DNA from: Candidatus Cloacimonadota bacterium
GTDB taxonomy: Bacteria; Cloacimonadota; Cloacimonadia; Cloacimonadales; TCS61
NCBI GenBank assembly: GCA_021734835.1
Contig: JAIPIH010000002.1
Span: 141,979-205,978, forward strand
Direction: 5' to 3'
Length of the DNA: 64,000 bases
In this document: positions 427 through 12,760 of the stretch, piece by piece
Layout of the letters: each line of letters starts with the position of its first letter
How positions within the stretch are numbered: position 1 is the stretch's first letter
The notes under the pieces: generated by a model
Database searches by the model: none
What the model was told of the DNA's origin: nothing
What the model saw: only the letters and a program-made list of their open reading frames with translations
Translations under genes and position numbers: made by a program

Positions 427-851
427 AAAAAGTTCTTCCCATTTTAATTGTCTTGACCATCTTGCTGGTGATCCTCGTAATAATTCAAAAAAACAGGTTT
501 AAAAATTCAGATGGGATTACGATAATCAATTTAGGAAATAAGATTTTGTTATCTTATGTAGATATCCAAAAGAATGAACAAATAAGCTTTGTTACTGAAC
601 GTGGTGACAATATGACCGGCTATCAATTACTGGAAATATTGGAAAATATGCAGATTAACACTCAGGAAATTGAAGGGTATATTTTTCGATCTTTGGACGG
701 CGGAACTTTGGAACTATCAAAGGACGATGAAGCCCAGTTTTATCTGATTTTTCAGGATGTTTTAGATAAACAAGATGTGAGACTTGTGATTCCAACTGAT
801 CAGTTTAGTCAACGCTGGATCAAGCATATTATTGAAATTGAGCTGATATAA
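423..851 (+). CDS. membrane-anchored hypothetical protein
   Basis: 142-aa ORF with an ATGA overlap upstream and a TAATG overlap with the downstream ATPase gene. Single N-terminal TM helix (ILIVLTILLVILVII). No family assignable by eye. Confidence 0.5.
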   Translation: MKKVLPILIVLTILLVILVIIQKNRFKNSDGITIINLGNKILLSYVDIQKNEQISFVTERGDNMTGYQLLEILENMQINTQEIEGYIFRSLDGGTLELSKDDEAQFYLIFQDVLDKQDVRLVIPTDQFSQRWIKHIIEIELI

Positions 852-1495
852 TGTTATACTTGGATGACCTTACATTTCAATACAAATTCTCTTCTCCGAA
901 GCTTTTGAACAATTTAACACGGAAAATTAACAAAGGTGAGATAGTTGCAGTTAACGGCGACAGTGCTGCCGGCAAGACCACATTATTAAATATAATTTGC
1001 GGAGTTATACCTAAATTTGTTCAGGGAAATTTGTCCGGAGAAGTATTTTTCAACGACATTCCCATCTCTTCACTCTCACTCGCTGAAACTGCACCATACA
1101 TAAGTCTCCTGATGCAGCATCCCGATAATCAGCTCTTTTTCCCTACGGTTGAACAAGAGTTAGCTTTTGGACCGGAAAACCTGAATATCCAACCGAATGA
1201 AATTCTAAAGCGAATTTATAATACTTTGAAACATTTAAATATCGAAGATTTACGGTTTCAAGAAACAACTGAGTTATCTTTCGGACAAAAAAAACTCGTT
1301 GTTTTTGCTTCTTTATTGATATTATCACCCCAAGTCTTATTACTGGATGAGCCATTTACAGGGATTTCGCAGATAAATATCGAATTGATGAAAGAAGAGA
1401 TCTATAATCAGGCAGAAATGGGAAAGATCATCATTGTTGCTGGTCATGAAAATGCTAAAATTAAAGCTTCACAAACTATTGAGTTAAAGCAGTAA
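851..1495 (+). CDS. ABC-type ATPase, ECF/CbiO (EcfA-like) energy-coupling component
   Basis: Walker A GDSAAGKTT, degenerate signature LSFGQKK, Walker B LLLDEP, H-loop GHE. Paired with a second ATPase, as in ECF transporters. Confidence 0.85.
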   Translation: MLYLDDLTFQYKFSSPKLLNNLTRKINKGEIVAVNGDSAAGKTTLLNIICGVIPKFVQGNLSGEVFFNDIPISSLSLAETAPYISLLMQHPDNQLFFPTVEQELAFGPENLNIQPNEILKRIYNTLKHLNIEDLRFQETTELSFGQKKLVVFASLLILSPQVLLLDEPFTGISQINIELMKEEIYNQAEMGKIIIVAGHENAKIKASQTIELKQ

Positions 1496-1496
1496 T

Positions 1497-2156
1497 ATGG
1501 AAAGTTTACAGATCAAAGATCTCGCTTTTGAGTACAAACAGGGAAAACCATTATTTACTCAAATTTCCCTTTCCTTCAAGTTGAATGATATTACCTTCCT
1601 GAGTGGGGCAAATGGCTCAGGTAAAACTACATTTTGCCGTATTATCAGCGGATTAGAAAAAAAATATCGCGGTAAAGTAGAAATTGCCGATCAGGATTTG
1701 AGATCTTTTTCTTTTGCTGAACTTGCTAAAATACTTGTTTATTTAAAACAAGAGCCAATTTCAAATATTATTGCTTCTGAGGCGGAAGAAGATCTGAAGA
1801 TATGGCAGTTTTTTTCTGATTCTCATGAAGATGTACTTTCTCGGGAGCGACAAAGTGCGTTAAATAAATATGAGATATCAAGTATCAGCAGGAAACCGAA
1901 TTGGGAACTGAGCGGCGGTCAATTAAAAAGAATTGGTTTGGCTGCCTTATTGTTAAAAGATAATCATTATTGGATCATGGATGAACCGCTGGCAGGACTG
2001 GACGACTCACTTGTAAGTTTACTGGTAAAGATACTCAAAGAAAGGAAACTAAACGGTAATGGTTGTTTGATTGTCTCCCATAATGAAAAGGTATTAAAAG
2101 AAATAATTGATCAATATTACATAATATGCGATCAGAAAATTAAATCAAGGATTTGA
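1497..2156 (+). CDS. ABC-type ATPase, ECF/CbiO (EcfA'-like) energy-coupling component
   Basis: Walker A GANGSGKTT, signature LSGGQLKR, Walker B WIMDEP, H-loop SHN. Starts 1 nt after the first ATPase stop. Confidence 0.85.
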   Translation: MESLQIKDLAFEYKQGKPLFTQISLSFKLNDITFLSGANGSGKTTFCRIISGLEKKYRGKVEIADQDLRSFSFAELAKILVYLKQEPISNIIASEAEEDLKIWQFFSDSHEDVLSRERQSALNKYEISSISRKPNWELSGGQLKRIGLAALLLKDNHYWIMDEPLAGLDDSLVSLLVKILKERKLNGNGCLIVSHNEKVLKEIIDQYYIICDQKIKSRI

Positions 2157-2163
2157 AAACAGC

Positions 2164-4050
2164 GTGAAAAAATATATCGTATTTGTGCTAATCATTTCAA
2201 TTTTCCGAACGCTCAACTCTGCAAATGTAGATTCACTTGAGACATCTAAACGTCATTATTATTTAGACGGTATCAGAGTAATTGCAGACAGACAGCAGGA
2301 AACAATAGGAGCTGTTAATATTTTGGGCTTTGATACGACAAAATTAAGACCGGAAATTAATATTGCAGAAACAGTTGATAAGATGAACGGATTACACGTT
2401 TCAAGCGGTGGAAAATCAGGCAGTTCGCTCCGCATCCGAGGTTTTAACAATGATCAGGTTAAGATATTATTAGATGGAAGACCTTTATGTGGTGGTTACT
2501 TTGGCAATATTGACCTTAATACGATCCCCAATTCTGATATTAAAGAAATTAGAATTTTAAAAGGTCCGGTTTCTTCTATTTATGGTTCAAATACATTGGG
2601 CGGAGTTGTCAATATCATAACTGAAACACCAAAAAATGGTGCATTACTTAAAATCGGTACTGAATTTCAAAGGAATAGTACAAATAAATCTTATATTTCT
2701 TCCAATCATGATCTGGGAAAATGGGATTACTGGCTTTATGTATCTCGTTATCAAACCGATGGATTTTCACTTTCCAAAGATTTTTTACCAACTATTAATG
2801 AAGACGGAAAACTTAGAGATAACACATCCCGAGATCAGTGGGATTTCCAATCAAAATTTGATTTTACGGTATGGGATTTTCATTCGATCGGCTTCCAGGC
2901 CGGTTATACTTTTATGGATAACAAAGAAATTCCCAGCAGCATATATGAAAGCAGAGTGCGTAAATTTACTGATTGGAAGAGATATCAAGCTTCAACTCTG
3001 GGATTTTTTCAGTTAAAACATAACCTTACTTTAGAATCAAATATTTTTTATGATCGTTATGATGATACTTATGCTGAGTATAATCCCGCAACAGGTGAAA
3101 TGTTCGGACAATGGCCTTCCTTCATCAAAAGCTGGATTTACGGCACTCATATAAAATTTGATTGGGAATTATTCTCCTATCTGCATAATTCTTTTGGTTA
3201 TCGCTTTGAGAACCAAGAATATACCAGAAAGGATAATGCCAATTATCCGGATTGGCTGGGAAATGAGCAAATACAGCATTACTGTTTTTGGCAATCGGAA
3301 TACACACTCAATAGTATGATCTTTACAGCCGGATCAGGAATGTCATTTTTCAAACCAGCAGGAATCTCCAATTGGAATTTACATTGGGAGCCATCAGCCG
3401 GGATTCACTATTCAAATAGCAAAAACTGGAAGTATTCTCTAGCTTATTCGTCGAATACAAAATATCCGTCAATGCATCAGTTATTTAGTGACAGCAGTGG
3501 AAATCCTGCTTTAATAGCAGAAAGAGCAGAAAAAAACGAGTTCAATTTGCATATTCCGGTTTTCTTAGGAAGTTTAACCGGTTCAATTCAGAATTCTCTT
3601 TATTATAATCATATTACAAATTTAATTGATAAAGTAAGTGGTACTTATCAGAATCTGGATAAGATAGATACATACGGTTTTGAAATCTCATTAACATTTT
3701 TCGCTCTCTGGGAACATCAAATAGAATATTCACATTTAAAATATATGAAAAACAGTTCAACTCCGCTACTTGAGACACCTGAAAACAGCGTTAATCTTAA
3801 AGAAAACATTAAACTACCTTTCGCTACTGATCTGGAATACGATCTATCTTGGGTTGATAAACGCTTCACTGACGAAGGTGTTATCCTTCCTGGTTATTGG
3901 CTTAATTCAGTTTATCTTCGTAACAAATTCAATAACTTTAAGATATTATTCGGATTAGAGAATATTTTTGATATTGATTATCAGGAAGAATTCGGATATC
4001 CGGGGAAAGGACTTAATTTTATCATTAGGTTAGAAACCGAATTCTTCTAA
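2164..4050 (+). CDS. TonB-dependent outer-membrane receptor
   Basis: GTG start and signal peptide. Plug-domain motifs (LLDGRPL, ILKGPVSSIYGSNTLGGVVNIIT). Long beta-rich C-terminal region ending in an aromatic residue (...LETEFF). Confidence 0.85.
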   Translation: MKKYIVFVLIISIFRTLNSANVDSLETSKRHYYLDGIRVIADRQQETIGAVNILGFDTTKLRPEINIAETVDKMNGLHVSSGGKSGSSLRIRGFNNDQVKILLDGRPLCGGYFGNIDLNTIPNSDIKEIRILKGPVSSIYGSNTLGGVVNIITETPKNGALLKIGTEFQRNSTNKSYISSNHDLGKWDYWLYVSRYQTDGFSLSKDFLPTINEDGKLRDNTSRDQWDFQSKFDFTVWDFHSIGFQAGYTFMDNKEIPSSIYESRVRKFTDWKRYQASTLGFFQLKHNLTLESNIFYDRYDDTYAEYNPATGEMFGQWPSFIKSWIYGTHIKFDWELFSYLHNSFGYRFENQEYTRKDNANYPDWLGNEQIQHYCFWQSEYTLNSMIFTAGSGMSFFKPAGISNWNLHWEPSAGIHYSNSKNWKYSLAYSSNTKYPSMHQLFSDSSGNPALIAERAEKNEFNLHIPVFLGSLTGSIQNSLYYNHITNLIDKVSGTYQNLDKIDTYGFEISLTFFALWEHQIEYSHLKYMKNSSTPLLETPENSVNLKENIKLPFATDLEYDLSWVDKRFTDEGVILPGYWLNSVYLRNKFNNFKILFGLENIFDIDYQEEFGYPGKGLNFIIRLETEFF

Positions 4051-4062
4051 CTAATAGGTATT

Positions 4063-4818
4063 ATGAAACAGGAAATTGATAACAACAACCCGGCAATCTT
4101 AAATTTACGAACTATTATTCTCATCGTATCTGCTCTCACTACTTTATCCGTTGTTTACAATTCAATTTTTATGCAAGTTTCTTTGATCTCAACAGCTATT
4201 ATCTTAAATTTAACGATTCAGCCTTCTCAGAATAGATTTTACAGACTTTATCACAGAATGAAACTTGTGTTAAAGATCATTACGATCATGTTGATATTTC
4301 AAGTTCTGTTTCGTCAGGGTGGTGAGATAATTTGGCAATACGGTTTTATCAAAATAACCGAAACTGGCTTGAATTACGGAATATCTTCCTCATTGCGTAT
4401 GTTGTTAATAGTTGTAATTGCTGGTTTACTTTTTGATATTCCATATCATGAATACATTATAGCTTTTCGTAAATGGAAGATTCCCTATGAAATATCATTT
4501 TTAGTAGCATCCACAATTCACTTTATTCCCATTTTTCAAAAGCAGTTTACCATAAGTAAAGAAGCGTTAAATCTGCGGGGTATTGAGTTATCAAAAGTTA
4601 AACTTAGCTCGAGAATTAAATTGTTTTCTGCTCTTGTGTTTCCAGTTATAGCAAAATCAATTTACCAAGTGAAATATCGCTCGATCTCTTTGGAATTAAA
4701 AGCTTTCAGGATCTCACCTGTTCGTACTTATATCTACGAAAACAAGTTAAAATGGTTTGATCTTGTACTTCAGATCTTAGCTGTTTGCGGATTTTTCGGA
4801 ATATTATTTCTATATTAA
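4063..4818 (+). CDS. ECF transporter transmembrane (T) component, EcfT/CbiQ-like
   Basis: 251 aa with multiple TM helices. Coupling-helix-like motifs (SSSLRM, EALNLRGIEL), as in the CbiQ/EcfT family. Sits in the same cluster as the two ECF-type ATPases. Confidence 0.65.
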   Translation: MKQEIDNNNPAILNLRTIILIVSALTTLSVVYNSIFMQVSLISTAIILNLTIQPSQNRFYRLYHRMKLVLKIITIMLIFQVLFRQGGEIIWQYGFIKITETGLNYGISSSLRMLLIVVIAGLLFDIPYHEYIIAFRKWKIPYEISFLVASTIHFIPIFQKQFTISKEALNLRGIELSKVKLSSRIKLFSALVFPVIAKSIYQVKYRSISLELKAFRISPVRTYIYENKLKWFDLVLQILAVCGFFGILFLY

Positions 4819-4921
4819 TGTAGATAATTATCAATATTGAATTAAATGTTTATCAAAACTTTTTAATTTGACAAACATCTAAGTTTTTTTAATTTTAATT
4901 ATTATTTACAAAGGAGAGGAT

Positions 4922-6028
4922 ATGAAAATAGTAATATTTGTTCTTCTGGTTTTCATTACTTGTTTTATTTATGCCCAGGAAGTTAAGTTTGATATCTATG
5001 ATAAACCAAATGATGATGGTTCTGCCTTGATAATCTCTTGGGATACAACTCAGATCTCTCCTTACCGCATTCTGATCTCACGCCAAACACCGGAAGGTAA
5101 AGTTCTGAATATCAAAAAGTCTAATGCTTTTAGCGGGAAGCACGAAGACGGTATCAATATTGAACCTGGTAAAATGTACGATTATCAACTTTTTGCTTTT
5201 AACAGTGCTGATGAGATTATATTTTCAGAAACCAGATCAGGTGAATCAAAAGCGCAGTGGTTCAATACAGGCAAAATATCACTCTTGATCCTGATGCTTC
5301 TAATATCTTCTTCTATAATATATTATATCTTCTCTGCCAGAAGCGGAAAGGAACTTTATATAAGAAAGATCAGCGGGTTGGAATCTATTGATGAATCTGT
5401 TGGTCGTGCTACAGAAATGGGCCGTCCGATATTATTCATCCCCGGAACTTTGGATCTTGACGATATGCAGACAATAGCAGGATTGACAATTCTAAGAAGA
5501 CTTGCCCAGAAAACTGCAGAATATGATTCAAAACTAATTGTTCCGGTTTGCCGGTCTATGGTACTTTCAACTGCAAAAGAAGTAGTAAAAGAAGCATATT
5601 TGAAAGCCGGTCGTCCTGATGCTTATGATCCTGATTCAGTATTTTACCTTACTGATGACCAATTTGGCTATGTCGCTGGCGTGGACGGGATAATAGTTCG
5701 AGAAAAACCAGCAGCTAATTTTTTCCTTGGTGCATTTTACGCCGAATCGTTGATCCTCGCTGAAACCGGATTTTCCAGTGGAGCGATTCAAACAGCAGGA
5801 ACAGCAATGCCCAGTCAACTACCTTTTTTTGTTGTAGCATGTGATTTTACTTTAATTGGTGAAGAGTTATTTGCAGCATCAGCTTATTTATCAAAAGACC
5901 CTCATCAATTAGGCAGCTTAAAAGGTCAGGATTTTGGAAAAGCTATCTTTGTTCTCGTTCTCGTAGTAGGAATAATATTAGAAATATCCGGAATTAGCAT
6001 CATAAAAGATTTTTTAACAATACATTAA
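4922..6028 (+). CDS. unknown membrane protein A: signal peptide, beta-rich ectodomain, TM, cytoplasmic domain, C-terminal TM
   Basis: Strong SD AAAGGAGAGG before the ATG. Signal peptide MKIVIFVLLVFITCFIYAQ. Ectodomain with DKPNDDGSALIISW (FN3/Ig-like look). TM ISLLILMLLISSSIIYYIF. No recognisable catalytic motif. Confidence 0.7.
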   Translation: MKIVIFVLLVFITCFIYAQEVKFDIYDKPNDDGSALIISWDTTQISPYRILISRQTPEGKVLNIKKSNAFSGKHEDGINIEPGKMYDYQLFAFNSADEIIFSETRSGESKAQWFNTGKISLLILMLLISSSIIYYIFSARSGKELYIRKISGLESIDESVGRATEMGRPILFIPGTLDLDDMQTIAGLTILRRLAQKTAEYDSKLIVPVCRSMVLSTAKEVVKEAYLKAGRPDAYDPDSVFYLTDDQFGYVAGVDGIIVREKPAANFFLGAFYAESLILAETGFSSGAIQTAGTAMPSQLPFFVVACDFTLIGEELFAASAYLSKDPHQLGSLKGQDFGKAIFVLVLVVGIILEISGISIIKDFLTIH

Positions 6029-6037
6029 GGAGAAACC

Positions 6038-6733
6038 ATGAAAAGAAAATTACCTTTAATGATAACATTCATTGTTGGTGTTATTTTAATATTTTCAGAA
6101 TTCATTCCTCATAAACCGTTTGGTCAGCTTTCAGGAGAACTTGAAATTTGGTTTCTGATCATATCCGGTTTTGCTATTTTACTGGGACAATTAAGTTTAT
6201 TCAAAGTTAATATATTTAAAATAAGATACAAGCAGCATGACTGGCCATTTTACGTGATAACTTTAGTAAGTTTTGTGATCATGGTAACTTTTGGTTTTTT
6301 ATGGGGAACCGGAAACAGCGGTGGTTTCTTAGGTCAGGGAGAAGCAATCTCTTCCGCTATGGGTTATAAACCATTTGATTATTTGTTCCATAACGTTTAT
6401 CAGCACTTACAAGCGACTATGTTTTCTCTCTTAGCTTTTTTTATTGCTTCAGCCGCATACAGAGCATTTATCGGAAGGACAGTTGAATCAAATCTTCTTT
6501 TATTCGCTGCGCTGCTTGTGATGTTGGGCAATACAACCTTAGGTGTATTACTAACAAGCTGGTTGCCGGAATCTCTGAACTTCCTCCATTTACCTAAAAT
6601 ATCTGAATTTATTATGACTTTCCCAACTACGGCTGGGCAAAGAGCGATTATGATCGGAGCAGGGTTGGGTATTATCGGCAGTTCGTTGAGGATCATCTTA
6701 GGAATTGAAAGATCTTACCTGGGAGGTGATTAA
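6038..6733 (+). CDS. unknown polytopic membrane protein B (~6 TM)
   Basis: SD AAGGAG at 6027-6032, with a 10-nt gap from the upstream ORF. About six hydrophobic helices. No family recognised. Confidence 0.7.
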   Translation: MKRKLPLMITFIVGVILIFSEFIPHKPFGQLSGELEIWFLIISGFAILLGQLSLFKVNIFKIRYKQHDWPFYVITLVSFVIMVTFGFLWGTGNSGGFLGQGEAISSAMGYKPFDYLFHNVYQHLQATMFSLLAFFIASAAYRAFIGRTVESNLLLFAALLVMLGNTTLGVLLTSWLPESLNFLHLPKISEFIMTFPTTAGQRAIMIGAGLGIIGSSLRIILGIERSYLGGD

Positions 6734-7566
6734 TGGGCAGATCCAAACAGATTGACAGACGCTGGTTATTCCTCTTGATTTTTGTTGGGGTTGCTTTACC
6801 ACTGATCTTTAAGATCGGCTTACCATTAGAAACCTCAAAGAATGTTCAAATGGTTCATGATCTGGTAGAGAATACACCAAAAGGATCAATAGCATTGATC
6901 TCTTTTGATTATGATCCTGCTAGTATGCCTGAGCTGCATCCGATGGCAAAAACTTTGGTAAAACACTGTTTCAAAAAAAATATAAAATTGATCTTTACTG
7001 CTATGTGGCCAATGGGTGTGCAAATGGCAGAAGATATTTTGGCGCAATTAGAAAATGAATATCCTGATCTTGTTTATGGAGAAGATTATGTGAATCTCGG
7101 CTTTAAAGCAGGGGGAATGATAACTATCCAATCTATGGGTAAAAATTTTGCTGAAGTCTTTCCTAAAGATGTGAATGGTAATGACGTCATGGATCTACCA
7201 ATTTTAGACGGCATTAAGAATTTCAATAACATTGGTTTTGTCTTTTCCTTATCTGCTGGTGCTCCCGGAATTAAAGAATGGGTACAAATTGCCCATGATG
7301 CTTATGGTAGACCAACTTCCGGTGGTGTTACCGGTGTAAGTGCTCCGGCAATTTTACCCTATGTTAATGAACAAAAACAGCTGACGGGTTTATTGGCCGG
7401 ACTCAAGGCTGCTGCAGAATATGAATTTTTAACTTTCTCCCCTGGAACGGCAACAAGCGGGATGGATGCCCAATCGATAGCTCATTTGATCATTATAATC
7501 TTTATAATTATTGGAAATGTAAACTACTGGCGGAATAAGCGTTCCCGGGAAAAAGGGGAGGATTAA
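6733..7566 (+). CDS. unknown bitopic protein C (N- and C-terminal TM anchors flanking a ~200-aa soluble domain)
   Basis: TAATG overlap with ORF B, preceded by GGGAGG. TM helices WLFLLIFVGVALPLIF and IAHLIIIIFIIIGNV. No family recognised. Confidence 0.7.
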   Translation: MGRSKQIDRRWLFLLIFVGVALPLIFKIGLPLETSKNVQMVHDLVENTPKGSIALISFDYDPASMPELHPMAKTLVKHCFKKNIKLIFTAMWPMGVQMAEDILAQLENEYPDLVYGEDYVNLGFKAGGMITIQSMGKNFAEVFPKDVNGNDVMDLPILDGIKNFNNIGFVFSLSAGAPGIKEWVQIAHDAYGRPTSGGVTGVSAPAILPYVNEQKQLTGLLAGLKAAAEYEFLTFSPGTATSGMDAQSIAHLIIIIFIIIGNVNYWRNKRSREKGED

Positions 7567-8207
7567 TGGAACAGTTTTTCACAACATTAGGTGTTTGGCT
7601 CGGAGCTTTTTTTACATTTGCGATCTTTAGTTTCCTTTATAAAGATAATCCCTTTTACAAAGCTGCTGAGCAGATATTTGTTGGACTATCAGCAGGTTAT
7701 TGGTTCGTTTATACTATATTTTTTATTTTGATCCCAAATCTATATGATCCGCTTACTAGTGATTTTAATGCAAACTGGATCAAGCTTATTCCTGCTGTCC
7801 TGGGTATCATGATGTTAATGAGATTGATACCTAAAACAGAATGGGTAAGCAGATTCCCGATTTCGGTCGTGATAGGTACAACATCCGGTGTATTTTTTCT
7901 CAGGTATTTGAAATCAGATGTCTTAAATCAGATAACTGCAACTATGATAAATCCCTTCCAAAGTGATGATTGGGTGATGGTAATTGGAAATATCATGCTA
8001 ATTGTTGGTACGATCTGCGGTGTAATTTATTTTTATTTCAGTAAGAAACATGAAGGTGTGTTCGGTGTTTCAGCGAAAATTGGGATATATTTTCTAATGG
8101 TTAGTTTTGGTGCTGCTTTTGGTTATACGGCAATGGCGCGTATTTCATTACTAATTGGAAGACTGCAGTTTTTACTAGGTGATTGGTTAGGGATCATTCA
8201 TCCCTAA
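7566..8207 (+). CDS. unknown polytopic membrane protein D (~6 TM)
   Basis: TAATG overlap with ORF C, preceded by GGAGG. About six hydrophobic helices. No family recognised. Confidence 0.7.
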   Translation: MEQFFTTLGVWLGAFFTFAIFSFLYKDNPFYKAAEQIFVGLSAGYWFVYTIFFILIPNLYDPLTSDFNANWIKLIPAVLGIMMLMRLIPKTEWVSRFPISVVIGTTSGVFFLRYLKSDVLNQITATMINPFQSDDWVMVIGNIMLIVGTICGVIYFYFSKKHEGVFGVSAKIGIYFLMVSFGAAFGYTAMARISLLIGRLQFLLGDWLGIIHP

Positions 8208-8218
8208 ATAAATTTAAT

Positions 8219-10066
8219 ATGAAAAAGTATATAATTCTATTTCTCTTTGCGGTGATAATTGTAAAGGTTGCTGCATTAACCAGACTGGATTTTTTAAAGC
8301 AGCAGTTGGAAACCGCTTCCGGTTTGCAAGAGATCGTAATTTTAGATGAATTACAAAAAGCTTATTGGAAGATATACCCCCAAGCAAGTTTAGAATACGG
8401 AATTCAAGCTTTGAAATCTTCTACAAATCTAAAAAATGAATTACAAAAAGGAAAACAACTTAATAATATTGCTATATCTTATAAACATTTAGAAGATTAC
8501 GAAAAGGCAATAGAATATATGACTTTATGCCTTCGTCAGGTTAAAAAAATTAATGATATCGAGTTACAGATCAATGCTTTGTATTACCTTGCTTCCTTTG
8601 AAAATGCTTTAGCGCGTAACGTAAAAGCTTTTGAATATGCTTTAGAAGCATTAGATTTGAGTAAAAAGTCGAAAAACCATCCCGGTTTGGCTAAATGCCA
8701 TTTCATTATTGCGGAAATATATTTTGATTTGAACGACCTCAAAGGTGCTTATGAGAATTATCTGATATCCCTTGCGGAACACGAAAACTTTGATGATAAA
8801 TCTTCTTACGCGCTTACAAATGAAAAACTAGGCGAAATCGATCTGTATAATAAGAATTACAACTATGCGGAAGATCATTTTTATACAGCATCTGAAAATT
8901 ATGAGGCAATTAATGATCTGGAAAGTTTGGTTAGAACTTACCAAGCTCTCGGAAGAATTTATAAAGAATCCGGTGAAAAAGAAAAAGCACTTGAATATGT
9001 TGAAAAGTATGCCGAAACAAATGAACAACTTAATCAGAGGATCATAAAAAATAAATTATTACATAATTATGAATATTATAATGTTATTGGCAGTGAAGAT
9101 AAAGCACTGGAATATTATAAATTATATACCGCTCATTTGGATTCTCTAAAGACCGAGATCAAACAAAAACAGGTTGATGAGTTGATTAGCGATATTGAGT
9201 ATAAGCATGAAAAAGAAAAAGCTAAAACAACTGAAAAGATTTTGGAAGTAGAAAGAACCGCAGAAGAAAAATTAGAAGAAAAACAACAAAAGATCGAAAA
9301 GCTGGTCAATGAAACACAATATATAGAAAAAATTGCTAAATTAGAAAATGATAAAATCATAAAACAAATTGAGGCAATGCAAAATGAACGAAATTTAAAA
9401 GAAGTCGAGTTAAAAAGACAACAAAAGATAAATAAAATAACAATTTATATAGCAATAATTATAGGAGTTTTTATTGTAATAATTGGGTTTATTGCTTATA
9501 GTAGATATAAATTACAGGAAAAATATACTTCCGAAATGGAAAAAATTGCTAAAACAGATCTTTTAACGCAATTACCAAATCGCCGTGCTGTTCTGGATCA
9601 GATCAACTATGAAGTGAACAGGTTCTTACGAAACAATGAGCCTTTCACCATTGTTATTAGTGATATTGACGATTTTAAGAACATTAATGATTCTTATGGT
9701 CATGATGTTGGTGATAAAGTGTTGATCGCTTTGGCGAAGTTAATAAAAGATTCTATACGGAAACAAGATATTTGCGCGCGTTGGGGCGGAGAAGAATTCC
9801 TCTTTCTTCTGCCTGGAACTGATGCAAAAGGCGGACTGACTATTTCTGAAAAAATCAGAAAAAAAATTGAGAAAGAGAAAATAAAACATGGTGAGAATCT
9901 ACTCACGTTTACAATGACCTTTGGAGTGAGTACTTATACCAAGGGATCAACAGTTGATGAATGCATTACTAGAGCCGATAAAGCTCTTTATCAAGGTAAG
10001 AAAACAGGAAAAAACAGAGTTGAATGTTTTAAGCAGACTCCTGTGAAGAGTAAAAGATCAAAATGA
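8219..10066 (+). CDS. diguanylate cyclase: signal peptide, TPR repeats, coiled coil, TM, GGDEF domain
   Basis: ATG at 8219 (MKKYIILFLFAV...) is preferred over the TTG at 8183. TPR-like repeats, then a long E/K-rich coiled coil, then TM ITIYIAIIIGVFIVIIGFIAY. GGDEF domain with LTQLPNRR, I-site RKQD and active site GGEEF. Confidence 0.85.
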   Translation: MKKYIILFLFAVIIVKVAALTRLDFLKQQLETASGLQEIVILDELQKAYWKIYPQASLEYGIQALKSSTNLKNELQKGKQLNNIAISYKHLEDYEKAIEYMTLCLRQVKKINDIELQINALYYLASFENALARNVKAFEYALEALDLSKKSKNHPGLAKCHFIIAEIYFDLNDLKGAYENYLISLAEHENFDDKSSYALTNEKLGEIDLYNKNYNYAEDHFYTASENYEAINDLESLVRTYQALGRIYKESGEKEKALEYVEKYAETNEQLNQRIIKNKLLHNYEYYNVIGSEDKALEYYKLYTAHLDSLKTEIKQKQVDELISDIEYKHEKEKAKTTEKILEVERTAEEKLEEKQQKIEKLVNETQYIEKIAKLENDKIIKQIEAMQNERNLKEVELKRQQKINKITIYIAIIIGVFIVIIGFIAYSRYKLQEKYTSEMEKIAKTDLLTQLPNRRAVLDQINYEVNRFLRNNEPFTIVISDIDDFKNINDSYGHDVGDKVLIALAKLIKDSIRKQDICARWGGEEFLFLLPGTDAKGGLTISEKIRKKIEKEKIKHGENLLTFTMTFGVSTYTKGSTVDECITRADKALYQGKKTGKNRVECFKQTPVKSKRSK

Positions 10067-10812
10067 AAGTTCTAAGTATAACAGGATATCATCATTCCGG
10101 CAAAACAACTGTAGCTATCGGATTGATAAAGGAGCTAAAAAAACGCGGATACTCAGTAACTTCCATCAAGGATATTCATTATCAAGATTTTACTATGGAA
10201 AAAAGAGGAAGTAATAGTTGGAAACATTTGCAAGCCAGCGGTAGTACAGTAATTGCCAGAGGACCTTCCGAGACATATCAAATCTGGAATAAACAACTTA
10301 CTTTAAACGAAATGCTGGCAAATTTACACTGTGATTTTGTGGTCGTAGAAGGCATGAAAGATGCTGATCTTCCCCGTATAATCTCTGCTAAAAATGAAGA
10401 TCAATTAGAGGAACTTGTCGATGAGACTGTATTCGCTGTTTCAGGAATTTATGGAAACAATCATAATAAATATAAAAATTTAACTGTCTTCAATTCATCT
10501 GAGCAAATAAGTGAACTAGCCGATTTAACAGTTAAAAAAGTATTCGATGTTTTACCACAAGCACAGGAAGAATGCTGCGGGGAATGTGGACTTAACTGCC
10601 GGCAGATGGTTGCAGGAATTCTTGCAGGACGGAATAAAAGAGAAGATTGCAAAGTGGATAACGATCCTAAAATTAACGTGAAGATCGGCGGAAAAGATAT
10701 GAAAATTGTACCTTATGTGCAAAACACTTTGAAGGATGTGATCAAAGCTTATGTAAAAAACCTGAAAGGATATGATGATGGAAATAGCATAGAAATTAGA
10801 ATCAGAGAGTGA
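10063..10812 (+). CDS. mobB: MobB-like molybdopterin-guanine dinucleotide biosynthesis adaptor fused to a Cys-rich C-terminal domain
   Basis: ATGA overlap with the cyclase gene. P-loop ITGYHHSGKTT and MobB-like N-terminal ~160 aa. The C-terminal extension carries CCGECGLNC...C. Confidence 0.7.
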   Translation: MKVLSITGYHHSGKTTVAIGLIKELKKRGYSVTSIKDIHYQDFTMEKRGSNSWKHLQASGSTVIARGPSETYQIWNKQLTLNEMLANLHCDFVVVEGMKDADLPRIISAKNEDQLEELVDETVFAVSGIYGNNHNKYKNLTVFNSSEQISELADLTVKKVFDVLPQAQEECCGECGLNCRQMVAGILAGRNKREDCKVDNDPKINVKIGGKDMKIVPYVQNTLKDVIKAYVKNLKGYDDGNSIEIRIRE

Positions 10813-10814
10813 TA

Positions 10815-11414
10815 ATGAAAAATGAGATAATTATTAACAAAAATAAAAGACAGGTTATCAAAATTTGTAATACTCCCAAAATGTTTAAAAAAGAACTTTA
10901 TATTTACAAATATCATTTACCATATACGCCAAGATTGATCGATAATGACGGCAAAAATACCCTCATTCTTGAATATATAGATGGGATCCCGATATTTGAC
11001 ATGGCTGAACCAGATTTCGTTAAAATAACTAAATTAATTATGCACTTCCATTCTATTGAGCCTCAGGGAAACAAATGTATCTGTCACTACGATAACAATC
11101 CCAGGAATTTTCTGTTCTCAAATGGTAAATATTATATACTGGATTTTAGTGAATGGATTTATGATTATCCGGAAACTGACCTTATCCATTTTCTATTGTT
11201 TTGTGCGTCTGAATACAATCTCAGTAAATTCCGCAAAGTTTTTAAGCAAGTAACGGAAACATACAGATCTGCTAGAATGATAAATCCTTTAGAATGGGAG
11301 CTGCTGATCCCGGAAGTAATTTTCAGATTTGATTCCAGAAGGAAAAAATTCCATAAGTATAAAGATAATCCTGATCTTTCCGAAAATAGAGATTTTTTGA
11401 AGAATATTCTTTAA
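10815..11414 (+). CDS. small protein-kinase-like fold phosphotransferase (APH / choline / Kdo-kinase-like)
   Basis: Catalytic-loop-like HYDNNPRNFLF followed by YILDFSEW (HxDxxxxN ... DF pattern). ATG at 10815; an alternative GTG at 10809 would overlap the mobB stop. Confidence 0.55.
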   Translation: MKNEIIINKNKRQVIKICNTPKMFKKELYIYKYHLPYTPRLIDNDGKNTLILEYIDGIPIFDMAEPDFVKITKLIMHFHSIEPQGNKCICHYDNNPRNFLFSNGKYYILDFSEWIYDYPETDLIHFLLFCASEYNLSKFRKVFKQVTETYRSARMINPLEWELLIPEVIFRFDSRRKKFHKYKDNPDLSENRDFLKNIL

Positions 11415-11976: not shown

Positions 11977-12122
11977 ATTGCCTCCTAAATAATTCATTAA
12001 ACTAGACAGATTATTTTATTATAAATGTAAAGAAAAAGTTATTCTTGACAGAGGGAAAGATTTAATAATATTTTCTTTTAAAGAATATTTAAATTTCAAA
12101 TTACCTTGTGGAGTGTAGTAGA

Positions 12123-12431
12123 ATGAAAATTTTTGTTGGGAATTTGACACGCGATATTGGTAAAGAAACTTTACTTGACTTGTTCAGTGATTATGGTGAT
12201 GTCCAAGCAGTCAATATCCTGATAGATAAGATCGATGGTGAATGGAAAGCCTTTGCATTCATTGATATGCCACAAGAGAAAGAAGCCTGGGATGCTATTG
12301 CAGCACTTGATAATAAAGAACACTTTGGTCATACTTTGATCGTACATCAAGCTCGGTACCGCACAAAAGACAGAAGAGGTCCTGATAGACAGGGCGGAAG
12401 ACGATACACAGATCTTCCTGAAGTAACATAG
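12123..12431 (+). CDS. RRM-domain RNA-binding protein with Arg-rich C-terminal tail
   Basis: RNP2 IFVGNL and RNP1-like KAFAFIDM. Tail VHQARYRTKDRRGPDRQGGRR. ATG at 12123 is preferred over the upstream GTG. Confidence 0.85.
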   Translation: MKIFVGNLTRDIGKETLLDLFSDYGDVQAVNILIDKIDGEWKAFAFIDMPQEKEAWDAIAALDNKEHFGHTLIVHQARYRTKDRRGPDRQGGRRYTDLPEVT

Positions 12432-12442
12432 ACTGAGGGTTT

Positions 12443-12760
12443 ATGAAAATTTTTATTGGAAATTTATCAAACTCTTTAGATCAACAAGATATCAAAGAAA
12501 GATTAGAAAAATATGGGCAGGTAGAATCAGTAAAAATTGATGAGCAGATAGCTTTTGCCGAAATGCCTTATCCAACCGAAGCTGAGAAAGCAATTCTACA
12601 CCTCGATAAATCTGAATTGGACGGGTTAGTTATCAGTGTTCATCAGGCCAGACATGGACTATCGGATAGACGCAAAAGCAAACGTTTGGGCGGTAGACGT
12701 TCAGATGATCCCCAAAAACACCTCTCTGAGATCTTAACAAAAGACGAAATAATTAAATAA
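12443..12760 (+). CDS. RRM-domain RNA-binding protein, paralog 2
   Basis: RNP2 IFIGNL and RNP1-like IAFAEM. Tail VHQARHGLSDRRKSKRLGGRR matches the upstream paralog. Confidence 0.8.
   Translation: MKIFIGNLSNSLDQQDIKERLEKYGQVESVKIDEQIAFAEMPYPTEAEKAILHLDKSELDGLVISVHQARHGLSDRRKSKRLGGRRSDDPQKHLSEILTKDEIIK

Follow-up and report, generated by a model that had tools for sequence, protein, structure and literature searches.

Four consecutive genes of a Candidatus Cloacimonadota bacterium (assembly GCA_021734835.1, contig JAIPIH010000002.1) very probably encode, to judge from their sequences, the subunits of a single obligate complex of the inner membrane, so far uncharacterized. They occupy positions 4922–8207, on the + strand, of the 64,000-nucleotide (nt) stretch of DNA that was analyzed here (contig positions 141,979 to 205,978 of the forward strand), which is called the window in the following, and their products are designated A, B, C, and D. 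The same four genes are found in the same order in several phyla, in some loci as tandem repeats of the whole module, and the recurrence of this arrangement is far more than chance would give.

Gene order, conservation, and tandem repeats

The four open reading frames encode A (368 amino acids, aa; 4922–6028), B (231 aa; 6038–6733), C (277 aa; 6733–7566), and D (213 aa; 7566–8207), all on the + strand and exactly where an earlier note, made from the sequence of the window, had placed them. Each one has a Shine–Dalgarno (SD) site of its own, as the same note had read, and all four sites are strong: aggagagg at 4912–4919 (+ strand) for A, aggaga for B, ggaggtga for C, and ggggagga for D. Stop and start codons overlap in the sequence TAATG at both the B/C and the C/D junction, also in line with that description, and the spacer between A and B measures 9 nt (6029–6037) instead of the 10 nt given there. 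A scan for sigma-70-type promoters upstream of A gave nothing above chance, no terminator-like site was found on the + strand between 4000 and 11600, and an Rfam search for an upstream riboswitch or leader RNA returned no element.

In 80 genome loci, tblastn finds the order A-B-C-D wherever the contig is long enough. For another 83 loci, most of them found by scanning metagenomes, profile searches gave ABCD, or parts of it where the contig ends, with a single ABDC reading. The order is thereby the same in nearly all of the ~160 related loci, which derive from Cloacimonadota, WOR-3, and Eremiobacterota/Vulcanimicrobiota genomes as well as metagenome contigs, and the spacing between the module genes is mostly from −4 to +16 nt. 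Both in the window and in its relatives, a gene of the Pfam family DUF6754, to which A belongs, is directly followed by the homologs of B, C, and D, which keep its strand and this order. This also applies to loci of the Eremiobacterota/Vulcanimicrobiota type, in which A has 768–840 aa and carries a propeller, and in which the next three genes are homologs of B, C, and D with E-values from 1e-41 to 1e-86. In one locus of the collection, on the WOR-3 chromosome CP070664.1 (L080), a masked run of N at ~8860–8960 interrupts the gene after B.

The named carriers of A belong to Cloacimonadota, WOR-3, Stahlbacteria, Vulcanimicrobiota/Eremiobacterota (including Xenobium), Brocadiia, and Phycisphaerales, together with metagenome-assembled genomes (MAGs) labeled Armatimonadetes; Planctomycetota, too, have members of the A family. 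All the named carriers are MAGs of uncultured lineages, which is a likely reason why the module has gone unstudied. The earlier note had proposed an undescribed membrane system, and it had suggested checking it by co-conservation and by profile and Foldseek searches. The proposal has stood up well on both counts, given that the same four genes keep their order across phyla and that the searches gave no confident match to a characterized family.

The module is repeated on one strand in 13 of these 83 metagenome and other loci, five of which have the arrangement ABCDABCDABCD. These triple loci (L100, L121, L129, L143, and L151; for example, L121:1140–12506) come from sediment and subsurface metagenomes. 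In four independent ones (L100, L121, L129, and L143), each copy finds its best match in the copy of the same position, copy i with copy i, and this holds for A, C, and D separately. Position-specific best matches of this kind imply that the triplication is ancient and that the order of the copies is fixed. They also imply that each paralogous set keeps its own subunits (A, C, and D being those tested), so that the subunits co-diverge. Such co-divergence speaks strongly for an obligate complex, as it would be expected of four proteins that associate specifically. The divergence between copies of one locus is uneven: the median identity is 37.5% for the ectodomain of A (over part of its length), 39% for C, 44% for B, 49% for D, and 55% for the DUF6754 domain. 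The periplasmic parts are thus the most divergent between copies and the cytoplasmic domain the least. The module of the window is closest to the type 1 copy.

Architecture and predicted topology of the subunits

Protein A is built from a signal-like helix, an FN3-like domain, a transmembrane (TM) helix, an alpha/beta domain of ~200 aa, and a second TM helix, which is the architecture that the earlier note had outlined. The FN3-like ectodomain (4979–5251, + strand) comprises residues ~20–110, which are predicted to be periplasmic. The first TM helix (residues 116–140; 5267–5341, + strand) was located by hydropathy and is followed by a segment rich in lysine and arginine, predicted to be cytoplasmic. 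Alignments and secondary structure delimit the cytoplasmic alpha/beta core of DUF6754 (residues 141–341; 5342–5944, + strand), and the C-terminal TM helix comprises residues 342–360 (5945–6001, + strand; hydropathy 2.74), with a corresponding helix at 333–355 in the structural model.

The assignment of A to a family is clear, since residues 110–364 match DUF6754 (PF20539) with an E-value of 4.1e-123 and 410 bits against a cut-off of 27, over positions 2–256 of the 257 in the model; the NCBIfam scan of A gave no model. The description of the module as one of unrecognizable family therefore has to be withdrawn for A, and it is retained for B, C, and D, for which no family was found. DUF6754 is a catalog entry of no assigned function and covers only one of the four subunits. 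A literature search found no publication that mentions DUF6754 or PF20539.

The family is large. At least 8000 homologs of A were counted at 90% clustering, and an exhaustive HMMER search of 1.84 billion representatives gave 2244 clusters at 50% identity, 857 of them with E < 1e-30; the homolog search also returned a protein that is 100% identical to A (locus tag K9N07_02265). In every relative found, the DUF6754 part is C-terminal, and the part that precedes it ranges from ~20 to more than 1000 aa. Among the long forms of A (n = 66), PQQ_2/BamB-like propellers are present in 20 and FN3 repeats in 3. The FN3-like ectodomain is thus the variable part of the family. A related observation is that in one locus (L086:8566–9933) a separate PQQ-like beta-propeller protein of 455 aa is encoded directly upstream of a propeller-bearing DUF6754 gene. 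The DUF6754 domain itself is 55–64% identical across phyla over 250 aa, a level that is usual in core machinery. Its alpha/beta core carries invariant motifs after the beta-strands, which in the alignments are GRATEMG, PGxxDxDD, VPVxRS, YLTDDQFG, and REKP, besides FYAES...AETG, QLPFF, and CDYTLIGEE.

The AF2 model of A has a mean pLDDT (predicted local distance difference test) of 67.8. The beta-sandwich at residues ~22–108 reaches ~90 and superimposes in Foldseek on fibronectin and tencon FN3 domains with TM-scores of ~0.6–0.75 and a root-mean-square deviation of ~3 Å; nothing was matched by Foldseek apart from this domain. The pLDDT falls below 50 at residues 263–337, which is the most conserved stretch in A. 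Poor modeling of such a conserved region fits a surface that requires partners.

Proteins B and D show about six hydrophobic segments each by hydropathy, as expected from the earlier reading of about six TM helices. The invariant residues of B are R142 (in AAYRAF), R202 (AGQRAI), and E224/R225 (GIERSYLGG); those of D are D27/N28 (YKDNPFYK), E35, and R192 (MARISLLIGR), with R199 near-invariant. Protein C consists of an alpha/beta domain of ~210 aa held between two TM helices, which agrees with the soluble domain between N- and C-terminal anchors that had been described before. Its C-terminal TM helix contains an invariant H251 and a near-invariant Q247. The beta-strands of C bear conserved Gly- and Asp-rich loops at their C-terminal ends, and the conserved motifs that follow the strands are SFDYDP, WPMG, GxKxGG, SxGxPG, and GGxTxV. 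The AF2 model of C (mean pLDDT 79, with ~90 in the soluble domain) has a doubly wound alpha/beta fold. Against the PDB, Foldseek found for it no match with E < 1e-3, the TM-scores being 0.17–0.35, and the nearest neighbors are generic Rossmann-like structures (GT-B C-domains, transhydrogenase dIII, and eIF2B). A match that would place C in a defined GT-B or Rossmann-like nucleotide-binding family (E < 1e-3, TM-score > 0.5) was accordingly not obtained.

Searches of B, C, and D against Pfam, NCBIfam, PADLOC, and the PDB returned no match, B and D being searched as single sequences, as phylum-level profiles, and as cross-phylum profiles. Among 49 members of the B family, weak Pfam matches recur to TMD0_ABC (14 members) and to 7TMR-DISM_7TM (10 members); they were judged to reflect hydrophobic composition, with no consistent partner. 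No ATPase, transporter, or catalytic family was detected in A–D by Pfam or NCBIfam, as the earlier note had seen by eye, and sequence and profile searches of solved structures with A, B, C, D, and with the proteins G and H described below gave nothing below E = 0.29. The PADLOC scan of A–D gave nothing at E ≤ 0.1, and a role in anti-phage defense was rejected for lack of any match.

The topology was predicted from hydropathy and from the positive-inside rule, by counting lysine plus arginine residues (K+R) over the alignments. For A, the count is 4.6 just after the first TM helix versus 1.7 just before it, which places the DUF6754 domain in the cytoplasm and the FN3 domain in the periplasm. 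For C, the N- and C-terminal tails have counts of 3.3 and 4.3, versus 1.2 and 2.2 on the side of the domain; with tails so rich in K and R, both termini are predicted to be inside and the alpha/beta domain to be periplasmic. B appears to have both its N- and C-terminus inside. The complex is thus predicted to have folded domains on both faces of the membrane.

The conserved residues of the soluble domains of A and C cluster just after the beta-strands, at their C-terminal ends. In Rossmann-like folds, the C-terminal ends of the parallel beta-strands are where the ligand crevice is canonically found, and both domains therefore probably bind a small ligand, which may be anionic or phosphorylated. 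Besides these positions, there are invariant ionizable residues in or beside the membrane: D337 and K340 of A, R142 and R202 of B, E35 and R192 of D, and H251 of C.

Accessory and neighboring genes

When the neighbors of the module were clustered, four more linked families on the same strand were found in other phyla, which are called E, F, G, and H. Their place is downstream of D (ABCDEFGH) in some loci and upstream of A, ahead of one to three modules (EFGH-ABCD), in others; in one locus, G and H are on the opposite strand. The set located after D is exemplified by L084:14503–18065, L167:13451–17251, and L168:9340–13136. E (~130–176 aa) appears by eye to have two hydrophobic helices and shows a weak match to bPH_6, and F (~91–130 aa) matches no family. 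G (~600 aa), an actin-fold ATPase of the GlmL/MutL type, matches the Pfam family MutL (PF13941) with E = 6e-125; its match to the NCBIfam GlmL models (E = 4e-67) scores under the cut-offs set for them. In H (~375 aa), a barrel-sandwich domain of the RnfC_N family was recognized (E = 2e-6). No solved relatives of G and H were found by sequence, and a literature search on PF13941 and GlmL gave nothing relevant. GlmL and MutL are accessory proteins of B12-dependent glutamate and ornithine mutases. G and H adjoin the module in 9 of the 16 loci from outside Cloacimonadota that have at least 5 kb on both sides; in the window, they do not adjoin ABCD.

Other neighbors appear in single loci or in few. 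In L167 (4267–9920) and L168 (193–5835), the module lies directly downstream of the glycolytic genes gap-pgk-tpi, which are preceded by genes for a Roadblock/LC7 protein and for a response-regulator-GAF-HATPase protein; this adjacency is probably clade synteny. A reverse transcriptase of group II intron type (RVT_1 and GIIM) is encoded just downstream of the module at L085:15797–17125, on a contig of 7.6 Mb.

In the window, D is followed by a gene for a GGDEF diguanylate cyclase (8219–10066, + strand; Pfam GGDEF, 5e-47, and TPR), a neighbor outside the conserved module. Its ATG at 8219 lies 11 nt past the stop codon of D and has no visible SD. The N-terminal helix of the cyclase is a signal or an anchor; it is followed by a long TPR region, a coiled coil, a TM helix, and the GGDEF domain, in which the GGEEF motif and the RxxD site are intact. 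The short gap and the lack of a terminator-like site on the + strand make co-transcription plausible, and D and the cyclase gene are probably co-transcribed in this genome. The co-transcription proposed in the earlier note thus holds as a plausible local feature, whereas its extension to signaling by cyclic di-GMP (c-di-GMP) finds little echo in the family: a GGDEF gene follows D in 13 of the 80 genome loci, all of them close or moderately close relatives, and none was seen after D in the distant lineages examined. A conserved linkage to GGDEF or EAL genes, as a system controlled by c-di-GMP would show, is thus missing, and no c-di-GMP receptor domain (PilZ, degenerate GGDEF/EAL, or MshEN) was detected in A–D by Pfam and NCBIfam. 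The linkage appears to be a feature of a subclade and not of the system, and c-di-GMP as a family-wide trait was rejected for this reason.

Further downstream (10063–11414) lies a gene for MobB fused to an Fe-S domain (Pfam MobB and FeS; NCBIfam PRK14494 models), followed by a gene for a small protein that resembles a kinase of the aminoglycoside-phosphotransferase type. The MobB-FeS gene comes directly after D in other Cloacimonadota, and the pair follows ABCD in many loci of this phylum, with or without GGDEF, which is phylum-level synteny; the pair was not seen after ABCD in other phyla. By eye, two tandem small proteins encoded at 12108–12760 (107 and 105 aa) resemble RNA-binding proteins of the RRM type and have Arg-rich tails.

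Upstream of the module, at 851–4818, there is an operon of the energy-coupling factor (ECF) type. It comprises two genes that by eye encode ATP-binding cassette (ABC) ATPases (CbiO; 851–2156), a gene whose product of 628 aa (2164–4050) by eye resembles TonB-dependent receptors, and a gene for a T component of the CbiQ type (4063–4818), which was confirmed by Pfam. The operon has no recognizable S component, and the presence of a TonB-dependent receptor in it is unusual. An AT-rich spacer of 103 nt separates the CbiQ gene from the SD site of A.

Possible function and comparison with known systems

The best explanation as a whole, an obligate complex that acts as a machine for translocation or transduction across the membrane, has in our opinion about an even chance; the mechanism itself is a best guess of low confidence, with a chance somewhat short of even. 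In such a machine, the ectodomain of A and protein C would recognize a ligand or an envelope partner and thus give specificity, and B and D would form a path through the membrane by means of a network of invariant Arg, Glu, and His residues. The DUF6754 domain might serve the cytoplasmic side, where it would meet a common ligand or partner. In many other phyla, the GlmL-type ATPase and the RnfC_N protein could energize or regulate the module; in this Cloacimonadota genome, where they are not nearby, the ABCD core would work alone, being for example ion-driven, or use partners encoded elsewhere.

A more tentative idea, which we regard as doubtful though worth stating, is that ABCD is the membrane core of a previously unrecognized class of trans-membrane machines, whose full form would have eight components and be driven or controlled by a GlmL-type ATPase. 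The same tentative idea includes that this machine would be widespread in uncultured phyla (Cloacimonadota, WOR-3, Eremiobacterota/Vulcanimicrobiota, and Planctomycetota) and that it would have been triplicated ancestrally in some lineages, to give three specialized modules sharing one accessory set. If this were true, the machine would represent a new architecture for transport or energy coupling that has no relative among known systems.

Several points weigh against these proposals. The physical association of the subunits is deduced from genomics, that is, from translational coupling and co-divergence, and the topology from the positive-inside rule together with hydropathy. According to Pfam and NCBIfam, none of the subunits has the signature of a transporter, a channel, or an enzyme. 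The DUF6754 part of A is poorly modeled, and with a pLDDT below 50 at residues 263–337 its fold and ligand site are drawn solely from secondary structure and conservation. Moreover, tblastn and iterated profiles found none of E–H in the 64-kb window, and all 80 loci of Cloacimonadota and WOR-3 lack them as well, so that coupling to an ATPase may not apply to this module.

One of the other explanations, in line with the c-di-GMP link of the earlier note, is an envelope sensor or signaling complex, in which the ectodomain of A would sense a cue from the envelope or from outside and DUF6754 would relay it to cytoplasmic effectors, here the TPR-GGDEF cyclase. A variable ectodomain joined to a conserved cytoplasmic domain speaks in favor of it, and so does a cyclase gene only 11 nt downstream, whose GGEEF motif and RxxD site are intact and which no terminator-like site separates from D. 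However, a GGDEF gene follows D in just 13 of the 80 loci and in none of the distant phyla, and no known signaling domain (HisKA, HAMP, PilZ, GGDEF/EAL, and others) is found in A–D. A sensor would also be unusual in having two polytopic subunits beside a periplasmic domain tethered at both ends, all of them as conserved as A, and we consider this explanation unlikely. An improbable alternative too is a membrane enzyme complex, for instance one that acts on a lipid-linked or envelope substrate by phosphoryl or glycosyl transfer, with the Asp-rich DUF6754 domain as the catalytic part and C handling the product in the periplasm. The invariant DxDD, TDDQ, Arg, and Glu motifs after the beta-strands of A are suggestive of it, the cross-phylum identity of 55–64% over 250 aa is unusually high, the invariant Arg residues of B and D could serve to bind the anionic head group of a lipid, and the weak Foldseek neighbors of C include GT-B C-domains and sugar-phosphate binders. 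Yet the Foldseek matches are generic (E > 1e-3, TM-score < 0.4), the motifs do not correspond to any defined superfamily, and the searches of Pfam, NCBIfam, and the PDB brought up no enzyme family.

An ion-translocating redox complex similar to Rnf/Nqr, with B and D in the place of RnfA/E, C as RnfG, and H as RnfC/NqrA, is called to mind by the size and number of TM helices that B and D share with RnfA/E, by the RnfG-like N-terminal anchor of C, and by the RnfC_N domain of the accessory protein H. The comparison fails at the sequence level: hhalign gave 0.8% for B versus E. coli RsxA, 0.1% for D versus RsxE, and 1.2% for C versus RsxG, no Rnf_Nqr or FMN_bind Pfam match was found in 49 (B), 49 (C), and 44 (D) diverse members, and no Fe-S or flavin-attachment family was detected. 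The relationship is largely refuted by these results, and we think such a complex highly improbable. It is also very unlikely that A–D are accessory or substrate-capture subunits of the upstream ECF-type ABC transporter. The operon lacks a recognizable S component, B and D resemble S components in size and in number of TM helices, and in 10 of the 60 Cloacimonadota loci with enough upstream sequence a CbiQ gene stands no more than 1.5 kb away on the same strand, but this is so in only 1 of 50 loci elsewhere. The linkage is thus local synteny, for which reason the role was rejected; in other phyla, the module occurs without any ECF gene, and in the window the 103-nt gap and the SD of its own separate A from CbiQ. 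Neither CbiM, BioY, nor any other S-component family of Pfam is matched by B or D, and no ABC_tran, CbiM, or CbiQ match exists in A–D. The least credible explanation is the one advanced in the earlier note, in which a duplicated pair, (A+B)/(C+D), would make up a pseudo-symmetric complex. What speaks for it is that A and C each have an alpha/beta domain between TM helices, and that B and D are alike in being polytopic, with about six TM segments. Nevertheless, hhalign gave 2.6% for A versus C with phylum profiles and 1.2% with diverse profiles, and 1.2% and 0.4%, respectively, for B versus D, and the prediction puts the soluble domains on different sides of the membrane, in the cytoplasm for A and in the periplasm for C. 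These four comparisons and the opposite topology led to its rejection. The collinear pattern that had been seen by eye in A and C turns out to be the generic strand-loop-helix-strand of Rossmann-like folds, and the short pieces that hhalign did align (2.6% and 1.2%) lie elsewhere.

The complex for translocation or transduction is the reading that we prefer. For the module, there are now a list of subunits, a predicted topology, a set of conserved positions, paralogs in tandem, and an ATPase that is a candidate partner, and we think that work on ABCD could bring to light a membrane transporter or transducer of a new type.

The likeness to known systems is in each case partial, and neither any of the four subunits nor the wider set of eight genes could be linked to a characterized one. 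With Rnf/Nqr, the module shares architecture only, that is, two small subunits of six TM helices, a subunit with an anchored periplasmic domain, and, in relatives, a cytoplasmic RnfC_N partner; it differs in that A has no counterpart there, C is anchored at both ends, and cofactor-binding families are lacking. ABC and ECF importers offer a similar combination of a polytopic pair with a tethered periplasmic alpha/beta domain, and an ECF module stands upstream in the window, but the module is without ATPase or Walker motif, has no match to a substrate-binding-protein fold, and keeps no conserved linkage to such transporters. G resembles GlmL/MutL by its matches to PF13941 (6e-125) and to the GlmL models (4e-67), whereas it stays below the NCBIfam equivalog cut-offs, has a C-terminal extension of ~130 aa, and is linked to membrane modules instead of mutase genes. 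The only catalog entry that corresponds is DUF6754 itself, which residues 110–364 of A match over the full model and which all relatives carry at the C-terminus, although this family model describes A and leaves B, C, and D without one. As no defining feature of the characterized systems that were tested is present, we rate the module outside every known kind.

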